Source: a virus (lineage: Duplodnaviria; Heunggongvirae; Uroviricota; Caudoviricetes). From it: DNA of 32,016 nt. Location of the stretch: IMG/VR virus record IMGVR_UViG_2541047849_000007; one strand, written 5' to 3'. A program made the translations under genes and the position numbers. The notes below the pieces were generated by a model. That model was not told the origin of the DNA and did no database searches. It saw only the letters and a list, made by a program, of their open reading frames with translations. This document shows positions 20,730 through 26,744 of this stretch, in pieces. Every line of letters begins with the position of its first letter. The first letter of the stretch is position 1.

Positions 20730-20980
20730 TGAAAGCATACCGCTATTCCGGCCCGGCCAGCGGCGTCACGCTGTCGGACGGAACCGAAATCCTGCTCTGG
20801 CCGGGGAAGACGTTTTCCCTGCCGGAGGAGCATGACTACGTGAAGGTACTGGTGGCGCTGAAACATCTGACGCCGGTACCTGAAGAGACTAAACTCGCCG
20901 GCACACCGGCTGTGCAGTCACCAAAGCGCAGAAGCAGCAGTGACAGCGAAGTGAAAACGGAGGACACCCATGGCAGCTAA
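20729..20980 (+). CDS. Hypothetical protein (about 83 aa)
   Basis: ATG 20729 overlaps the upstream stop (TGATG); GAGGAA RBS. The track begins 3 nt earlier at a GTG. Confidence 0.5.
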   Translation: MKAYRYSGPASGVTLSDGTEILLWPGKTFSLPEEHDYVKVLVALKHLTPVPEETKLAGTPAVQSPKRRSSSDSEVKTEDTHGS

Positions 20981-22397
20981 CTATCTGCATGGTCCCGAAA
21001 CCATTGAGGTGGAAAACGGTGCCCGCCCGGTTAAAACGGTGAAATCTGCCGTTATTGGCCTGATTGGTACCGCCCCGATGGGGGACGTCAATACGCTGGT
21101 ACAGTGCCTGTCTGAGAAAGACGCAGCGGCATTTGGCAGCCAGTTCACCGGCTTTACCATTCCGCAGGCGCTGGATGCGATTTATGACCATGGTGCAGGC
21201 ACCGTTCTGGTCATTAACGTCCTCGACCCGGCGAAACATAAAACGGCGATCCAGGGTGAAGTGGTTACCTTTGACAAATCGACAGGGCAGGCCAGACTTG
21301 CGCATCCGGTTGTCGCTAATGTGGTGGTGAAAAACAGTGAAGGCAGCACCACCCACACGGCGAACACGGACTACCGTGTTGATGCGCAGGCGGGTGTGCT
21401 CACGAACCTGGGCAAGGCTATTGAGGCCGGTGGCAGCGTGAAGGTGAGCTATGAGTACGCGGACCCGTCGAAGGTGACTGCGGCGGACATCATCGGCGGG
21501 GTGAACAGCGCCGGAAACCGAACCGGCATGAAGCTGCTTAACGACAGCTTCAACCTGTACGGCTATTTTGCCAAAATTCTGATTGCGCCGGTGTTCTGCA
21601 CCCAGAAGAGTGTAGCAGTTGAGCTTATCGCCATGACAGAGAAGCTGGGCGCGGTAACCTACATTGATGCGCCTGTCGGTACCACCTTTGCACAGGCTCT
21701 GGCAGGTCGTGGCCCGGAAGGCACCATTAACTTCAATACCAGCTCCGACCGCGTCCGTCTGTGCTATCCGCATGTGAAGGTATATGACCCGGTGACAAAC
21801 ACGGAGCGTCTGGAGCCGCTCAGCCAGCGTGCAGCAGGTCTGCGTGCCAGAGTCGATCTGGACAAGGGCTACTGGTGGTCATCCTCCAATCAGGAGATTC
21901 TGGGGATCACCGGCGTGGAGCGCCAGCTGTCCGCGATGATTGATGACCCGCAGAGTGAGGTGAACCTGCTTAACGAACAGGGGATCACCACGGTATTCAG
22001 CAGTTACGGCAGCGGCCTTCGTCTGTGGGGTAACCGGACGGCAGCATGGCCAACGGTCACCCATATGCGTAACTTTGAGAACGTTCGCCGCACCGGTGAT
22101 GTGATCAACGAGTCCATTCGTTATTTCAGCCAGCAGTACATCGACATGCCGATTACTCAGGCGCTGATTGATGCACTGACGGAGTCGGTCAACGCCTACG
22201 GTCGCAAAATGACTGGTGATGGTGCGGTACTGGGCTTCCGTTGCTGGTTTGATCCGGCCCGCAATCCGGAGACGGAGCTGGCCGCCGGGCACCTGTTGCT
22301 GAGCTACAAATATACGCCACCACCGCCGCTGGAGCGACTGACGTTTGAGACTGAGATCACCTCGGAATACCTGTTAACCCTGAAAGGGGGCAACTGA
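20970..22397 (+). CDS. Tail sheath protein
   Basis: 475 aa with a GGAGGA RBS, immediately upstream of the tube gene. Size and position fit contractile-tail sheath (Mu L / P2 FI). Confidence 0.85.
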   Translation: MAANYLHGPETIEVENGARPVKTVKSAVIGLIGTAPMGDVNTLVQCLSEKDAAAFGSQFTGFTIPQALDAIYDHGAGTVLVINVLDPAKHKTAIQGEVVTFDKSTGQARLAHPVVANVVVKNSEGSTTHTANTDYRVDAQAGVLTNLGKAIEAGGSVKVSYEYADPSKVTAADIIGGVNSAGNRTGMKLLNDSFNLYGYFAKILIAPVFCTQKSVAVELIAMTEKLGAVTYIDAPVGTTFAQALAGRGPEGTINFNTSSDRVRLCYPHVKVYDPVTNTERLEPLSQRAAGLRARVDLDKGYWWSSSNQEILGITGVERQLSAMIDDPQSEVNLLNEQGITTVFSSYGSGLRLWGNRTAAWPTVTHMRNFENVRRTGDVINESIRYFSQQYIDMPITQALIDALTESVNAYGRKMTGDGAVLGFRCWFDPARNPETELAAGHLLLSYKYTPPPPLERLTFETEITSEYLLTLKGGN

Positions 22398-22918
22398 TGT
22401 CAAAGATTGAGATAAACCGCATCACGAATGCCAACATCTATCTGGATGGTACTAACCTGCTGGGACGGGCTGAGGAAGTTAAACTCCCCGATGTCTCCAT
22501 GATTATGCAGGAACACAAGGCGCTGGGGATGGTGGGTAAGGTGGAACTCCCGGCTGGTTTTGACAAACTGGAAGGCGAAATCAAATGGAACAGCTTTTAC
22601 CGCGATGCGATGCTGTCTGCCGCGAACCCGTACAGGTCGCTGGCACTGCAGTGTCGTTCCAGCGTCCAGCGCTACAGCTCGCAGGGGCTGATTGACGAAA
22701 TCCCGCTGGTCACCTTCCTGACGATTATGTTCAAGAAGAACCCGCTGGGGACGTTCAAACAGCACGAGAACGCCGAGTTCTCCAGTAGCTTCACATGCAC
22801 GTATATCAGACAGGTACTGGATGGTGAAGAGCTGCTGCAACTGGACTATCTGGCCAACATCTTCCGGGTCGGCGGTGTTGATCAACTGACTGACTACCGT
22901 ATCAATATCGGGGGCTGA
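22397..22918 (+). CDS. Tail tube protein
   Basis: 173 aa directly after the sheath gene; fits Mu M / P2 FII. Confidence 0.8.
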   Translation: MSKIEINRITNANIYLDGTNLLGRAEEVKLPDVSMIMQEHKALGMVGKVELPAGFDKLEGEIKWNSFYRDAMLSAANPYRSLALQCRSSVQRYSSQGLIDEIPLVTFLTIMFKKNPLGTFKQHENAEFSSSFTCTYIRQVLDGEELLQLDYLANIFRVGGVDQLTDYRINIGG

Positions 22919-22920
22919 CG

Positions 22921-23202
22921 GTGAGTGTTGAACTGACGGATAAAGGAGGACGATGTGCGGCACTGGGCATGTCAAATGGTACGTGGTTTACCCTCCTTGA
23001 TATTCCGGGGGTGGAAACCCTTTTTAATACCCGTAAAACCAATGACCCGATTGACTGCACACGTTCAAAGGCCCGCAGACTGGCGGATTTGATTGAAGCA
23101 TGGGAGCCTCCCGACCACTGGTTCTCCGGCACCGGCAAATCTGAGGGAAAGACGCTTCTCATCGCTTTCCTGCGTAACTGCAAGGGGTTTCGCACTTGCT
23201 GA
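22921..23202 (+). CDS. Hypothetical protein (non-ATG start; uncertain)
   Basis: Track ORF starts at GTG 22921, 2 nt after the tube stop. The first in-frame ATG (22969) has no well-spaced RBS. Confidence 0.3.
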   Translation: MSVELTDKGGRCAALGMSNGTWFTLLDIPGVETLFNTRKTNDPIDCTRSKARRLADLIEAWEPPDHWFSGTGKSEGKTLLIAFLRNCKGFRTC

Positions 23203-23209
23203 CATCACA

Positions 23210-23234
23210 GGGGCTCCGGCCCCTTCTTCTTAAT
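23210..23234 (+). terminator. Putative partial terminator after the sheath/tube unit
   Basis: AGGGGC-tccg-GCCCCT hairpin followed by TCTTCTTAATCT. Confidence 0.4.
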
Positions 23235-23299: not shown

Positions 23300-23635
23300 A
23301 TGTCACAGACCCCATCCGATACTTTTAAATTGTCTTATCCCTTCACCACTGCTGCAGGCACCAGAATTGAGCTGGTTGAACTGAAACGCCTGACGGTAAA
23401 AGACCTGAAGCAGGTGCGCAAAATCAGCAAAAACCCGGCAGACTGGGACGAACCGCTGATTGCCCGCAGTACTGGTCTTCTCCCGGAAGATCTCGACAAT
23501 ATGGATCTGGCTGATTACCTGCAGTTACAGAAACGATTTCAGCTCATCACGGGGATGGGTGAGAGCGACAAAGGCGCTGACGCAGGCGCAGGGGCTGCTG
23601 GCGAGATGGTTCCGGTTTCAGCCGGGGGAGATTGA
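23300..23635 (+). CDS. Tail assembly chaperone (P2 E-like)
   Basis: 111 aa between the tube and tape measure genes. Gly/Ala-rich C-terminus ending in a G-run next to its stop. Confidence 0.6.
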   Translation: MSQTPSDTFKLSYPFTTAAGTRIELVELKRLTVKDLKQVRKISKNPADWDEPLIARSTGLLPEDLDNMDLADYLQLQKRFQLITGMGESDKGADAGAGAAGEMVPVSAGGD

Positions 23636-23717
23636 TGCCCTCGATACTGACGATCTGGAGATGTGGCTGGAGCAGGCTGAAGAGCAAATAAAAAGCGAGT
23701 ACGGCGACAAATCATAG
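23300..23717 (+). CDS. Predicted frameshift-extended tail chaperone (requires a +1 shift near 23624-23630)
   Basis: A protein-like +1 frame (ARWFRFQPGEIDALDTDDLEMWLEQAEEQIKSEYGDKS) is open across the 3' end of the chaperone ORF and stops at 23717. The -1 frame is also open but reads as Arg/Trp-rich junk. Confidence 0.4.
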
Positions 23718-23792
23718 TACAGACAGCCGCCAGTAGCGGCTGTTCTGCGTTATCCCCTCACGTCTTTTCACCTTCCCCGGAGGTTAACCACT

Positions 23793-26744
23793 ATGTCGGG
23801 ACAGTTTTCAGTCGGCGTTGTTATCGGCGGGATGATTGGCAGCACATTCCGTTCTGCAATGAGCGGTACCCGCCGTGCGCTTGATTCCCTGAGCGATACC
23901 TCACGCCGCCTGCAGGAACGTCAGAACGCTTTAACCCGTGCAACAGAACGTTATGGTCAACTGGGCTCTTCCCGGATGCAGCATCTCAACAGCGAGCTGC
24001 TGCGGGTAAGCCGCACCATGGAGCAAATTGAGCGCCAGCAGCGCCGTCTGTCAGCGGCATCAGCCACCAGTGATGCGCTGAAAGCTAACCGCATGGCGCT
24101 GTATGGTCAGGGGATTGAAGCGTATGGCATGGCACAGACTGTTTATCATACGGTTTCCCCTGCCGTTCAGCAGTCCATGTCTTTTCAGGACAAAATGATT
24201 GATATGTCGATCACCGCAAAATATGACAATAAAACGCGGGATGCACTTGCCGGACAGATAAAAGGCTGGGCGCAAAAATACAATCAGTATCAGGATGAAC
24301 TGCAGGAGGCGGTGGGTTCGCTCATCAGCGACAATATTGATAACTTGTCAGATATCGGTTTTCTGATGCCGGATATTGCCCGCGCGGCAACGGCAACACG
24401 CACGTCATCTCAGGACTGGGCAAAAGTGGCCGCAGTCTGGCAAAACTCCCTGAAAGGTGCGGCCAGAGATTTTAGTGCCGTCCAGAATATTATGGCTTAT
24501 GCCGGTGACCAAGGGTCATTTGAAATCCCGGATCAGGTCAAGTGGATGCAGTCCCTGGCCCCAATGATGGCGGGTATTGCCAGTGGAAAAGAGGCTGTTG
24601 CTGAAATCGGGGCCAGTCTCCAGATAGCAAAAATCGGTGCGGGCTCCACCGACGAAGCAGCCAATAATTTTAAAAACTTTCTTACCAAAATTTTTGCCCG
24701 CGATACTCAGAAACAGTTTGCTGATCTGGGTATTGATTTGCAGGGTTCTGTTGCGAGTTATAAGGCTGCGGGGATCTCTCCGATTGAAGGGATGTTGAGT
24801 GTTATAGAACGTTACCTCAATGCCAAAAGCCCCGAAGCGCTGGCCGGCTTCAAATCCGCCATGAAAATAAAGAATGATACGGCAAGAGATGAGGCACTTC
24901 AGGCTCTGGCGAAAAACTTTGGTCTGGGCGATATGTTCGCGGATATGCAGGTCATGGCATTTATCCGCCCGATGCTGGCCAACATGGACAGATATCGCGA
25001 GATCCGTGCCGGTGCTCTCAGGGCTGCGGATAACGATTTGCTTGCCAGTGCTTACGATCAGCGGCTGAAATCTCCCCTTGAAGCCACTAAAGCGCTTATG
25101 GTCAGCAGTCGCGATCTGGCTATTACGCTGGGCGATCAGCTCGCCCCCTCTTTTATTTCTCTGACTCAGGAGCTGATCCCACTCATTCAGGGGGCAAAAC
25201 ACTGGGTGGCGACTCACCCGCAATTTGTCAGTGGGGCTTTTAAGCTCATCAGTGCGCTCCTTGCGATTAAGATAGCGACTGTTGGTCTCAAACTGGGGCT
25301 GAATCTCCTTATTTCCCCCTTTGTGAACGTCTGGAAAACTGCTGTTTTACTCCGGACCAACTGGCATCGACTGACTACCGCACTAGGAGAAGGTGGCAAA
25401 TTACGCTGGCTTGTCACTGGATTTAGCCGACTGACCAGCGGAGGACTGAAACTCAGCAAAGTTCTGGCGGGCAGCCTCGTTCGCGGTTTTATGAGCGCTG
25501 CACGTGCCGTTCTCTGGATTGGGCGAGCGCTGATGATGAATCCCATCGGTCTCGTTATCACCGCTGTCGCGGCAGCAGCTTACCTTATCTACCGCAACTG
25601 GGGGACAGTCAGTGGCTGGTTTAAACAGCGCTGGGCTGACATTCAGGAAGCCTTTAACGGCGGTATCGCGGGAACTGGTAAGCTGCTGATTAACTGGTCG
25701 CCGGCAGGGCTGCTCTATAAAGCCTTTGCGGCTGCGCTGAAATATTTCGGCGTTGCTCTGCCGGCAAAGTTCACCGACTTCGGTGGCCATCTTGTCGACG
25801 GTCTGATTAACGGTATCAAAAACAAATGGGGGTCGCTCAAATCCAGTGTAACCGGAATGGGTGACAGCATCAGTAGCTGGTTTAAACAGTGCTGGTCTGA
25901 CATTCAGGAGGCCTTTAACGGCGGTATCGCGGGAACTGGTAAGCTGCTGATTAACTGGTCGCCGGCAGGTCTGCTCTATAAAGCCTTTGCAGCTGCGCTG
26001 AAATATCTTGGTGTTGATCTGCCGGCAAAGTTCACCGACTTCGGTGGCCATCTTGTCGACGGTCTGATTAACGGTATCAAAAACAAATGGGAGTCGCTCA
26101 AATCCAGTGTAACCGGAATGGGTGACAGCATCAGTGGCTGGTTCAGTGAAAAGCTGGGTATTCATTCGCCGAGCCGCGTGTTTATGGGCTTTGGTGACAA
26201 TATCGCGCAGGGGGCCGCCATTGGCCTGCAGCGGAGCACTCCGATTGCAGCTCTGGCCGGGCAGCGAATGGCCAGTGAACTGCTCCCCAGAATGCCCGTG
26301 AGCATTCAGGGGCCAGAAATACGGGATAACACTTCAGGTGTTCGCTTCAGTATGCCGTTGCCCGATATCAACGGGTTTATGTCGTCTGCTAAAAATGCGA
26401 TCGGATCCGTAATCAATAGTTTGTCTTCCATGCCCGCTATTCCGATCTCCACCCGGGCATCGACTTTACCAGGTCAACGTCTGGCAAATGAGATGACACC
26501 GGATGTTCCCCGTATCCCCTCGCCTGAAATCCTGGCTGCCGGATATTCAGGCCGTGGTGCAGCTGCAACCGGCGGTGGAACGTCTGGTGGTATCCAGGTC
26601 AGCTTTAATCCTCAGTTTTTCCTCAATGGCAGGGAAACCACAGCGCCTGCAGGACTGACTGGTGCCCTGAATATGAGTCTGCATGAGCTGGAAAAAATGC
26701 TGGAGCGTCTGCTGGCTCAGAAACAACGTAAGGAGTACCGCTGA
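23793..26744 (+). CDS. Tail tape measure protein
   Basis: 983 aa, mostly helical with Gly-rich segments, downstream of the chaperone pair. Contains an internal 87-aa tandem duplication. Confidence 0.85.
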   Translation: MSGQFSVGVVIGGMIGSTFRSAMSGTRRALDSLSDTSRRLQERQNALTRATERYGQLGSSRMQHLNSELLRVSRTMEQIERQQRRLSAASATSDALKANRMALYGQGIEAYGMAQTVYHTVSPAVQQSMSFQDKMIDMSITAKYDNKTRDALAGQIKGWAQKYNQYQDELQEAVGSLISDNIDNLSDIGFLMPDIARAATATRTSSQDWAKVAAVWQNSLKGAARDFSAVQNIMAYAGDQGSFEIPDQVKWMQSLAPMMAGIASGKEAVAEIGASLQIAKIGAGSTDEAANNFKNFLTKIFARDTQKQFADLGIDLQGSVASYKAAGISPIEGMLSVIERYLNAKSPEALAGFKSAMKIKNDTARDEALQALAKNFGLGDMFADMQVMAFIRPMLANMDRYREIRAGALRAADNDLLASAYDQRLKSPLEATKALMVSSRDLAITLGDQLAPSFISLTQELIPLIQGAKHWVATHPQFVSGAFKLISALLAIKIATVGLKLGLNLLISPFVNVWKTAVLLRTNWHRLTTALGEGGKLRWLVTGFSRLTSGGLKLSKVLAGSLVRGFMSAARAVLWIGRALMMNPIGLVITAVAAAAYLIYRNWGTVSGWFKQRWADIQEAFNGGIAGTGKLLINWSPAGLLYKAFAAALKYFGVALPAKFTDFGGHLVDGLINGIKNKWGSLKSSVTGMGDSISSWFKQCWSDIQEAFNGGIAGTGKLLINWSPAGLLYKAFAAALKYLGVDLPAKFTDFGGHLVDGLINGIKNKWESLKSSVTGMGDSISGWFSEKLGIHSPSRVFMGFGDNIAQGAAIGLQRSTPIAALAGQRMASELLPRMPVSIQGPEIRDNTSGVRFSMPLPDINGFMSSAKNAIGSVINSLSSMPAIPISTRASTLPGQRLANEMTPDVPRIPSPEILAAGYSGRGAAATGGGTSGGIQVSFNPQFFLNGRETTAPAGLTGALNMSLHELEKMLERLLAQKQRKEYR
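25617..26140 (+). repeat. Tandem duplication (2 x 261 bp, about 96% identical) inside the tape measure gene
   Basis: Unit beginning TGGTTTAAACAG recurs 261 bp later. The protein repeat is WFKQ(R/C)W(A/S)DIQEAFNGGIAGTGKLLINWSPAGLLYKAFAAALKY ... FTDFGGHLVDGLINGIKNKW(G/E)SLKSSVTGMGDSIS. Confidence 0.85.

Follow-up and report, generated by a model that had tools for sequence, protein, structure and literature searches.

In this study we show that the gene for the tail assembly chaperone in a tailed phage (Caudoviricetes; IMG/VR virus record IMGVR_UViG_2541047849_000007, analysed as one stretch of 32,016 nucleotides (nt), the window) is accompanied in its +1 frame by a conserved domain resembling gpE' of phage P2, and that comparison with related loci confines the change between the two frames to the short sequence CGA_UUU_C (23534–23540). 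Most likely the two parts are joined by a +1 slip of the phenylalanine transfer RNA (tRNA-Phe) in the ribosomal P site, from UUU to the overlapping UUC (23537–23540), a mechanism that we read from the pattern of conservation. An earlier note on this DNA had placed the slip in a run of G at the end of the chaperone gene; the relatives put the change of frame about 90 nt upstream of that run.

Two conserved reading frames in the chaperone gene

The open reading frame (ORF) in frame 0, ORF1 (23300–23635, + strand), encodes a gpE-like chaperone of 111 amino acids (aa) and has AGGAG 8 nt 5' of its ATG. Its product matches PF10109 Phage_TAC_7, the family of P2 E, Mu gp41 and gp14, with 74.8 bits over residues 8–81, well past the gathering cut-off of 25 bits, and the chaperone domain runs to about residue 81. 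ORF1 is located between a tail tube gene of the P2 FII type (22397–22918, + strand; PF04985, 180.5 bits) and a tape-measure gene of 983 aa (23793–26744, + strand; PF10145, 73.9 bits), with a 93-aa ORF also intervening on the tube side. The three matches agree with the identification, in the earlier note, of a tail assembly chaperone between tube and tape-measure genes, and the assignment to a Mu-like phage also holds: over this region the window shares 99% identity with Escherichia phage PhiKM, a phage assigned to Bcepmuvirus in GenBank. The same segment was found in 637 of 5426 complete E. coli genomes.

The +1 frame, which is equally the −2 frame, is open from 23460 to a TAG at 23715–23717 and reads ...QAQGLLARWFRFQPGEIDALDTDDLEMWLEQAEEQIKSEYGDKS. 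The −1 frame, in contrast, reads RRRRGCWRDGSGFSRGRLMPSILTIWRCGWSRLKSK up to its stop; it is rich in Arg and Trp, closes at 23691 and is not conserved among the relatives, nor is there a T-run heptamer that a −1 slip of the P2 type would use. Frame analysis and conservation thus bear out the note's view that the extension lies in the +1 frame and that the −1 frame is junk. From 23541 to 23717 (+ strand) the +1 frame comprises 58 codons and the TAG and encodes SSSRGWVRATKALTQAQGLLARWFRFQPGEIDALDTDDLEMWLEQAEEQIKSEYGDKS. The core of the gpE'-like domain within it (ARWFRFQPGEIDALDTDDLEMWLEQAEEQIKSE; 23598–23696, + strand) corresponds to profile positions 4–36 of the 37 of PF06528 Phage_P2_GpE. The score of the window peptide, 14.6 bits (E = 0.023) over ARWFRF...IKSE, is below the gathering cut-off of 23 bits. 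The +1 peptides of relatives gave 20 bits (Salmonella), 16.5 bits (locus L111) and 32.1 bits (locus L110, above the cut-off). P2 E' scored 78 bits, and a peptide from the −1 frame of a Pasteurella phage 52 bits. The +1 peptides of phages BcepMu, Bise and Komp found no match in the PF06528 search; NCBIfam gave no match to the fusion or E' peptides, and a sequence search of PDB gave none either.

Our sample of relatives consisted of phage records, 80 viral contigs of the window's family, 18 viral contigs obtained with BcepMu gp41 and the chaperone of phage Bise as queries, and 30 loci in bacterial genomes; the hosts include Enterobacterales, Burkholderia, Pseudomonas, Ralstonia, Pandoraea, Undibacterium and Verminephrobacter. 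All 84 viral-contig relatives (84/84) have the E' peptide in the +1 frame, as do the 18 loci of the BcepMu and Bise types and the loci from bacterial genomes. Altogether more than 130 related loci from Enterobacterales, Burkholderia, Pseudomonas and other Betaproteobacteria carry it, and always in the +1 frame. Fusions predicted for six clades, 134–152 aa long, are collinear with the 142-aa E+E' protein of P2, and P108, E110 and W122 are invariant in the alignment with it. Judged by these comparisons, the +1 peptide is a P2 gpE'-like domain, and its conservation is far beyond chance.

Relatives confine the change of frame to CGA_UUU_C

Stop codons in the two frames of the different clades leave a shared zone of only 38 nt, from −8 to +30 nt around the codon of Phe80, in which the frame could change if all clades do so at one position. 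On the 5' side, the +1 frame is open back to the TTT of this codon in every clade, and it opens just 8 nt before TTT in Ralstonia phage YO107_2, in Pseudomonas phage Komp_PAO1_1 and in four betaproteobacterial genomes (Undibacterium, Pandoraea, Verminephrobacter and Beta proteobacterium L13). On the 3' side, frame 0 closes 30 nt past TTT in the Bise group and 33 nt past it in locus L029 and in a 90-aa allele described below. The only invariant bases within the zone are TTT followed by C, found in 107 of 107 loci and in 39 different contexts, and also in the loci from bacterial genomes. In the window they form the tetranucleotide UUU_C (23537–23540, + strand), a UUU followed by a pyrimidine, within the proposed shift cassette CGA_UUU_CAG (23534–23542, + strand; CGA at 23534, TTT at 23537, CAG at 23540). 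CGA_TTT_CAG is the context in 82 loci; others are CGA_TTT_CAA, CGA_TTT_CTG, TCC_TTT_CGC, GCC_TTT_CGC, TCT_TTT_CGT, GCA_TTT_CAA, GCG_TTT_CAR, GTG_TTT_CGG and AAA_TTT_CAG. The invariant TTT_C, which is not a canonical X_XXY_YYZ heptanucleotide, is hence the candidate slippery sequence of this chaperone gene.

Codon usage points to the same place. In a codon alignment of 68 unique chaperone genes there are 36 columns in which the residue is conserved and the codons are degenerate, and only two of the 36 show no synonymous variation: R79 (CGA in 49 of 49) and F80 (TTT in 68 of 68). The other conserved Phe column has 40 TTC and 10 TTT, and the other conserved Arg column has 57 CGC, 8 CGT, 2 CGG and a single CGA. 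One Lelliottia locus reads CGG_TTT_C. TTT is kept even in the BcepMu-like phages, where it makes up only about 23% of Phe codons. Downstream of the TTT, the linker is somewhat better conserved in the +1 frame than in frame 0; a P-x-x-x-L-W motif of the +1 frame is conserved ahead of LLARWF, with which the homology to E' begins (from 23595; the Pfam match begins at 23598).

The 90-aa form of ORF1, the widespread E. coli allele P0015 (seen in loci L144–L149), is present in 1681 index blocks of the public collection, and its neighbours, the sheath, tube and tape-measure genes, are intact, as is the +1 ORF. A change of CAG to TAG at the equivalent of 23570–23572 is nonsense in frame 0 and synonymous (ACC to ACT) in the +1 frame; the resulting stop is 33 nt past TTT and 54 nt 5' of the G-run. 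Judged by this allele, the last 21 residues of frame 0 seem to be dispensable. The two frames, their homologies and, across the relatives, the confinement of the frame change to CGA_UUU_C are in our view properties of the sequences themselves.

Proposed mechanism

From these properties we infer that the change of frame is ribosomal and what its direction and efficiency might be, as well as a possible helper role of CGA and the functions of the proteins. Most ribosomes would read frame 0 to the TGA at 23633 and yield the 111-aa gpE-like chaperone. A minority would slip forward by one base with tRNA-Phe in the P site on UUU (23537–23539); its anticodon GAA would re-pair with the overlapping UUC (23538–23540), and the +1 frame would then be translated as far as the TAG at 23715. 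The product would be a 138-aa E+E' protein made of M1...LQLQKRF80 and the 58 residues SSSRGWVRATKALTQAQGLLARWFRFQPGEIDALDTDDLEMWLEQAEEQIKSEYGDKS, with the junction ...LQLQKRFSSSRGW... and the tryptic peptides FSSSR, GWVR, ALTQAQGLLAR and FQPGEIDALDTDDLEMWLEQAEEQIK. By analogy to lambda G/GT and P2 E/E+E', the shared N-terminal domain might bind the tape-measure protein and the E' domain might recruit the tube protein, and neither chaperone product would be expected in the finished virion. The codon in the E site, CGA, is decoded through an inosine:A wobble pair. As a weakly pairing codon it may help the slip from the E site; the discussion in PMC3498833 connects poor pairing in the E site with more frequent +1 shifting.

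Several other ways of changing frame were considered and rejected. A −2 slip at the conserved site is ruled out as it lands on GAU, with which tRNA-Phe cannot pair, and the direction is therefore +1. Transcriptional slippage was rejected as well: by known standards it needs longer runs than T3 or G5. We also rejected a stimulatory structure in the downstream RNA. The segment 23541–23640 folds at −37.5 kcal/mol compared to −35.4 kcal/mol for shuffled sequences (z = −0.61), and a GGCUG/CAGCC pairing is without compensatory change in locus L077.

This null result on folding is one of several points that count against a programmed slip at UUU_C. In-frame TTT_C occurs 31 times in the + strand ORFs of the window, which is too often for these four bases by themselves to determine a programmed level of shifting. 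The codon in the A site, CAG, is not rare but common, and no Shine-Dalgarno-like element was seen upstream by eye, with no systematic scan made; the stimulators that might accompany a UUU_Y site, an A-site codon that is decoded slowly, an element of this kind or a downstream structure, are thus not apparent here. The E-site codon varies by clade (CGA, UCC, GCC, GCA, GCG, GUG and AAA, with CGG in the Lelliottia locus), and any role of the E site is for this reason unproven. The confinement argument assumes that the position of the shift is common to all clades, and the related sequences share phylogeny, so that the counts of loci are not counts of independent events. The 90-aa allele could come from defective prophages. 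Finally, for this phage and its relatives alike the case is built on the comparison of sequences.

Alternative explanations

The site proposed in the earlier note, GGG GGA GAT TGA (23624–23635, + strand; GGG at 23624, GGA at 23627, GAT at 23630, TGA at 23633), is indeed the 3' end of ORF1, and the +1 frame does end at 23717 as the note had it. A slip on GGG_GGA_GAU_UGA, be it a +1 slip of tRNA-Gly on GGG or a −2 slip like that of Mu, would give ...VSAG(G)EIDALD..., in its wider context ...GEMVPVSAG(G)EIDALDTDDLEMWLEQAEEQIK. (The junction given in the note, VSAGG/EIDALD, is that of a −2 slip; the +1 slip it described would give VSAG/EIDALD.) Five Gs permit perfect re-pairing, GGA is a less used codon with a stop two codons on, and Mu, a verified −2 case, slips on the five-G run CGG_GGG_CGA; low-level slipping here might be possible in this particular phage. 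As the site of the conserved frame change we nevertheless consider the run very unlikely. Of the 106 related loci, 64 have their frame-0 stop 5' of its position (among the unique sequences, 49 of 75), alleles of E. coli with 99% identity included, typically with ...GAAGEVV and the codons GTT TAG, 12 nt 5' of the run. The run itself is missing in Salmonella, Burkholderia, Pseudomonas and Ralstonia relatives, where it is replaced by CCCAGTGAA (Salmonella), CCGTCCGAG (Burkholderia) or others, and E' is still in the +1 frame. As the homology to E' starts 5' of the run, a product made there would omit LLARWFRFQP, which is the most conserved part of E' and belongs to the PF06528 match. GGGGG is kept in the enteric clade simply because it codes for Pro-Gly-Glu of E'; in the +1 frame the segment 23624–23635 encodes Pro-Gly-Glu-Ile-Asp, and it is not a slip site shared by the relatives. 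Alignment with related phages, which the note had suggested as a check, therefore supports its +1 extension and speaks against its slip at the G-run. A +1 slip at one of the other G-rich sites, GCA_GGG_GCU (23588–23596, GGG to GGG) or ACG_GGG_AUG (23549–23557), appears unlikely too, if slightly less so. GGG_G at 23591–23594 permits perfect +1 re-pairing just 5' of LLARWF, and Ralstonia has GGC_GGG_GGA at the equivalent place. However, the Salmonella clade reads AAT_GGC_GCT there, frame 0 has already ended before this site in the 90-aa allele (+33) and in the Bise group (+30), and the P-x-x-x-L-W motif would be lost; instead of ACG_GGG_A most relatives have ACT_GGG_C.

It might also be that there is no frameshift and that E' is a separate small protein made from an internal start such as the GTG at 23559. 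RefSeq/PGAP annotates a 52-aa 'GpE family phage tail protein' from the equivalent GTG in one degraded E. coli genome, and BcepMu gp42 is annotated with its own ATG, the Met of which is conserved within the BcepMu clade. We regard this as improbable, although somewhat less so than a slip at either kind of G-rich site. Candidate E' starts are not conserved in the relatives: no start codon is shared across clades, and the GTG is GCA in the KP12-like majority. By eye there is no convincing Shine-Dalgarno sequence before the candidate starts. The homologous protein of P2 is annotated as an E+E' fusion made by −1 frameshift, and a separate start would leave unexplained the invariant TTT_C, the CGA and a +1 frame that is open to TTT in every clade. 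It is hardly credible that the +1 ORF is a relic without function or results from composition, even if genome annotations leave it unmarked: its amino acids are conserved across gamma- and betaproteobacterial hosts despite divergence of the DNA, it matches PF06528, and a substitution that creates a stop in frame 0 leaves the +1 peptide unchanged.

Fusions of the two frames do exist in databases, several of them as 138-aa proteins that span the whole predicted product. We rejected them as evidence for a junction and treated them as sequencing or assembly errors. Their junctions (P0001–P0009) vary, falling at G5 (23624–23628), at G3 or at A-runs, and some have a second error at A5 near 23690; proteins with exactly the G-run junction have further homopolymer frame errors and look artefactual. 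Locus L082, with a 1-nt deletion before the G-run, and locus L125 (Apirhabdus apintestini CP138906.1) were treated likewise. Public in-frame chaperone–E' fusions are probably sequencing errors that might be mistaken for natural fusions.

Other features of the locus

The tail sheath gene (20970–22397; PF04984/PF17482) precedes the tube gene. The 93-aa ORF between the tube and chaperone genes (22921–23202) has a weak DUF7739 match (25 bits); it is missing from a Salmonella relative (L004) and has an internal stop in E. coli IAI39, and it is followed in the window by a terminator-like hairpin (AGGGGCTCCGGCCCCT plus TCTTCTT) at 23209–23224. A GC-rich hairpin of 8 bp (ACAGCCGC-cagta-GCGGCTGT; 23723–23743, + strand) was found by folding the window and its relatives. 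It starts 6 nt past the E' stop, within the 75-nt spacer before the tape-measure gene, and is kept in enteric relatives; loci L046, L076 and L082 have changed but complementary stems and T-rich tails. In the terminator scan the hairpin did not reach the required T-run. It looks like a terminator, an attenuator or an element of RNA stability. The tape-measure gene contains a tandem duplication in perfect register of 261 nt, or 87 aa (25609–25869 and 25870–26130, 96% identical). With it the tape-measure protein has 983 aa; other copies from E. coli have 896 aa, and that of KP12 has 821 aa. One would expect a longer tail. In the region of the duplication the record of PhiKM is interrupted by a sequencing gap.

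Discussion

The closest known system is the gpE/gpE+E' pair of phage P2. E belongs to PF10109 and E' to PF06528 (weakly so in the window), the gene order is sheath, tube, chaperone and tape measure, and the products of 142 aa (P2) and 138 aa are close in size, as the earlier note had noticed. The P2 record annotates E+E' as a −1 frameshift product in the FETUD tail operon. In the alignment both changes of frame fall on one Phe codon, where the chaperone domain ends. The column of this junction Phe is invariant, and its P2 member belongs to the slip site U_UUU_UUG. The two lineages thus appear to shift at a homologous codon and in opposite directions. P2 slips −1; this locus, in contrast, has E' in its +1 frame and a closed −1 frame, it lacks a heptanucleotide, and its UUU_C would allow a single re-pairing in the P site. 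Another difference is that E' does not overlap the tape-measure gene here and is followed by the 75-nt spacer with its hairpin.

Mu and the phage of the window are both Mu-like transposable phages, and the Mu pair gp41/gp41-42 has the same relative frame of the extension and the same position between tube and tape-measure genes. The −2 frameshift of Mu has been verified, with an efficiency of about 2.2% (PMC3498833). However, the slip site of Mu, close to the 3' end of gene 41, is CGG_GGG_CGA, on which pairing can be restored after a move of two bases back, whereas the G-runs of the window are not conserved and lie beyond the frame-0 stops of relatives. Mu gp41 belongs mainly to PF23746, its extension is without a PF06528 match, and the tail module of the window is P2-like and not Mu-like. 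Differing in site and in families, the locus is not a copy of the Mu case; it seems to be a P2-type E/E' pair with the opposite direction of slip.

Sites of the type UUU_Y are a further comparison. According to PMC5009743, bacteria shift +1 with particular ease on UUU_Ynn, with no need of a stop codon, and YopN-TyeA probably uses such a site; influenza PA-X is made by +1 shifting on UCC_UUU_CGU through the same re-pairing (PMC3498833). Our site has the same tetranucleotide, and tRNA-Phe would re-pair on it in the same way, moving from UUU to UUC; the BcepMu site UCC_UUU_CGC nearly equals the PA-X cassette. Our site differs in that its A-site codon (CAG) does not appear to be decoded slowly, and in that the role here would be to control the ratio of two chaperone products.

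Among the chaperones, lambda gpG/gpGT is alike in genomic position and, by analogy, in having two products with a common N terminus in a fixed ratio. Lambda uses a −1 frameshift on G_GGA_AAG. Neither lambda gpG/gpGT nor the other chaperone frameshifts share sequence similarity with the window. PMC5009743 describes, for lambda G/GT, binding of the tape-measure protein by the common domain and recruitment of the tube protein by the extension; it also reports chaperone frameshifts in the −1, −2 and +1 directions. Cases of +1 have been annotated in actinobacteriophages and predicted in a halovirus, and the training set of PRFect has 350 forward slippery-site cases, mostly from actinobacteriophage chaperone genes.

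BcepMu (locus L092, AY539836; 4603–5364) is a direct relative. Its gp41 is the homologue of the chaperone, and gp42, the E' ORF, carries the E' motif in the +1 frame of gp41. In GenBank, by contrast, gp42 is annotated as a lambda-G-like gene of its own, with slippage into gp43, although gp43 is without counterpart in the window and the conserved signal is at the gp41/gp42 junction. This suggests, from comparison of the loci, that the real pair in BcepMu is gp41 plus gp42; gp43 is probably spurious, and the annotated gp42/gp43 slippage looks misplaced. None of the records that we inspected (PhiKM, KP12, BcepMu, phiE255 and RefSeq E. coli records) joins the two ORFs as a frameshift. PhiKM has 'tail protein E' only, KP12 a hypothetical protein and RefSeq 'phage tail assembly protein' only; gp15 and gp16 of phiE255 are separate, and so are gp41 and gp42 of BcepMu. 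The only place with a RefSeq annotation of the +1 ORF (52 aa, GTG start) is the degraded genome mentioned above, a prophage copy in E. coli E300010 (L011, 2438–2785) in which a fragment of a minor head protein abuts the E' region.

Chaperone frameshifts and UUU_Y +1 sites were both known before; what this unannotated case would add is a slip opposite to that of P2 at the same codon, preceded by an invariant CGA. As a broader hypothesis, which we put forward tentatively and with less confidence than the slip at UUU_C itself, one conserved Phe codon in the P2 E/E' family might be recoded both ways, −1 on U_UUU_UUG in P2-like phages and +1 on UUU_C in BcepMu-like ones, with a near-invariant rare CGA in the E site as the stimulator in the enteric and betaproteobacterial clade. 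If indeed this were true, it would be a compact +1 signal of bacteria that works without a stop codon, a rare A-site codon or RNA structure, and one that was missed when hundreds of E. coli genomes, and also the type record of BcepMu, were annotated. The invariant CGA before the slip site offers a testable hypothesis on the role of the E site, and the correct junction would be needed for building these tails or related tailocins. In conclusion, we describe what would be a natural and strongly conserved UUU_C +1 site of bacteria with a defined selective purpose. As it is at the codon homologous to the −1 site of P2, this one family might be well suited for comparing how the direction and the efficiency of frameshifting are set.

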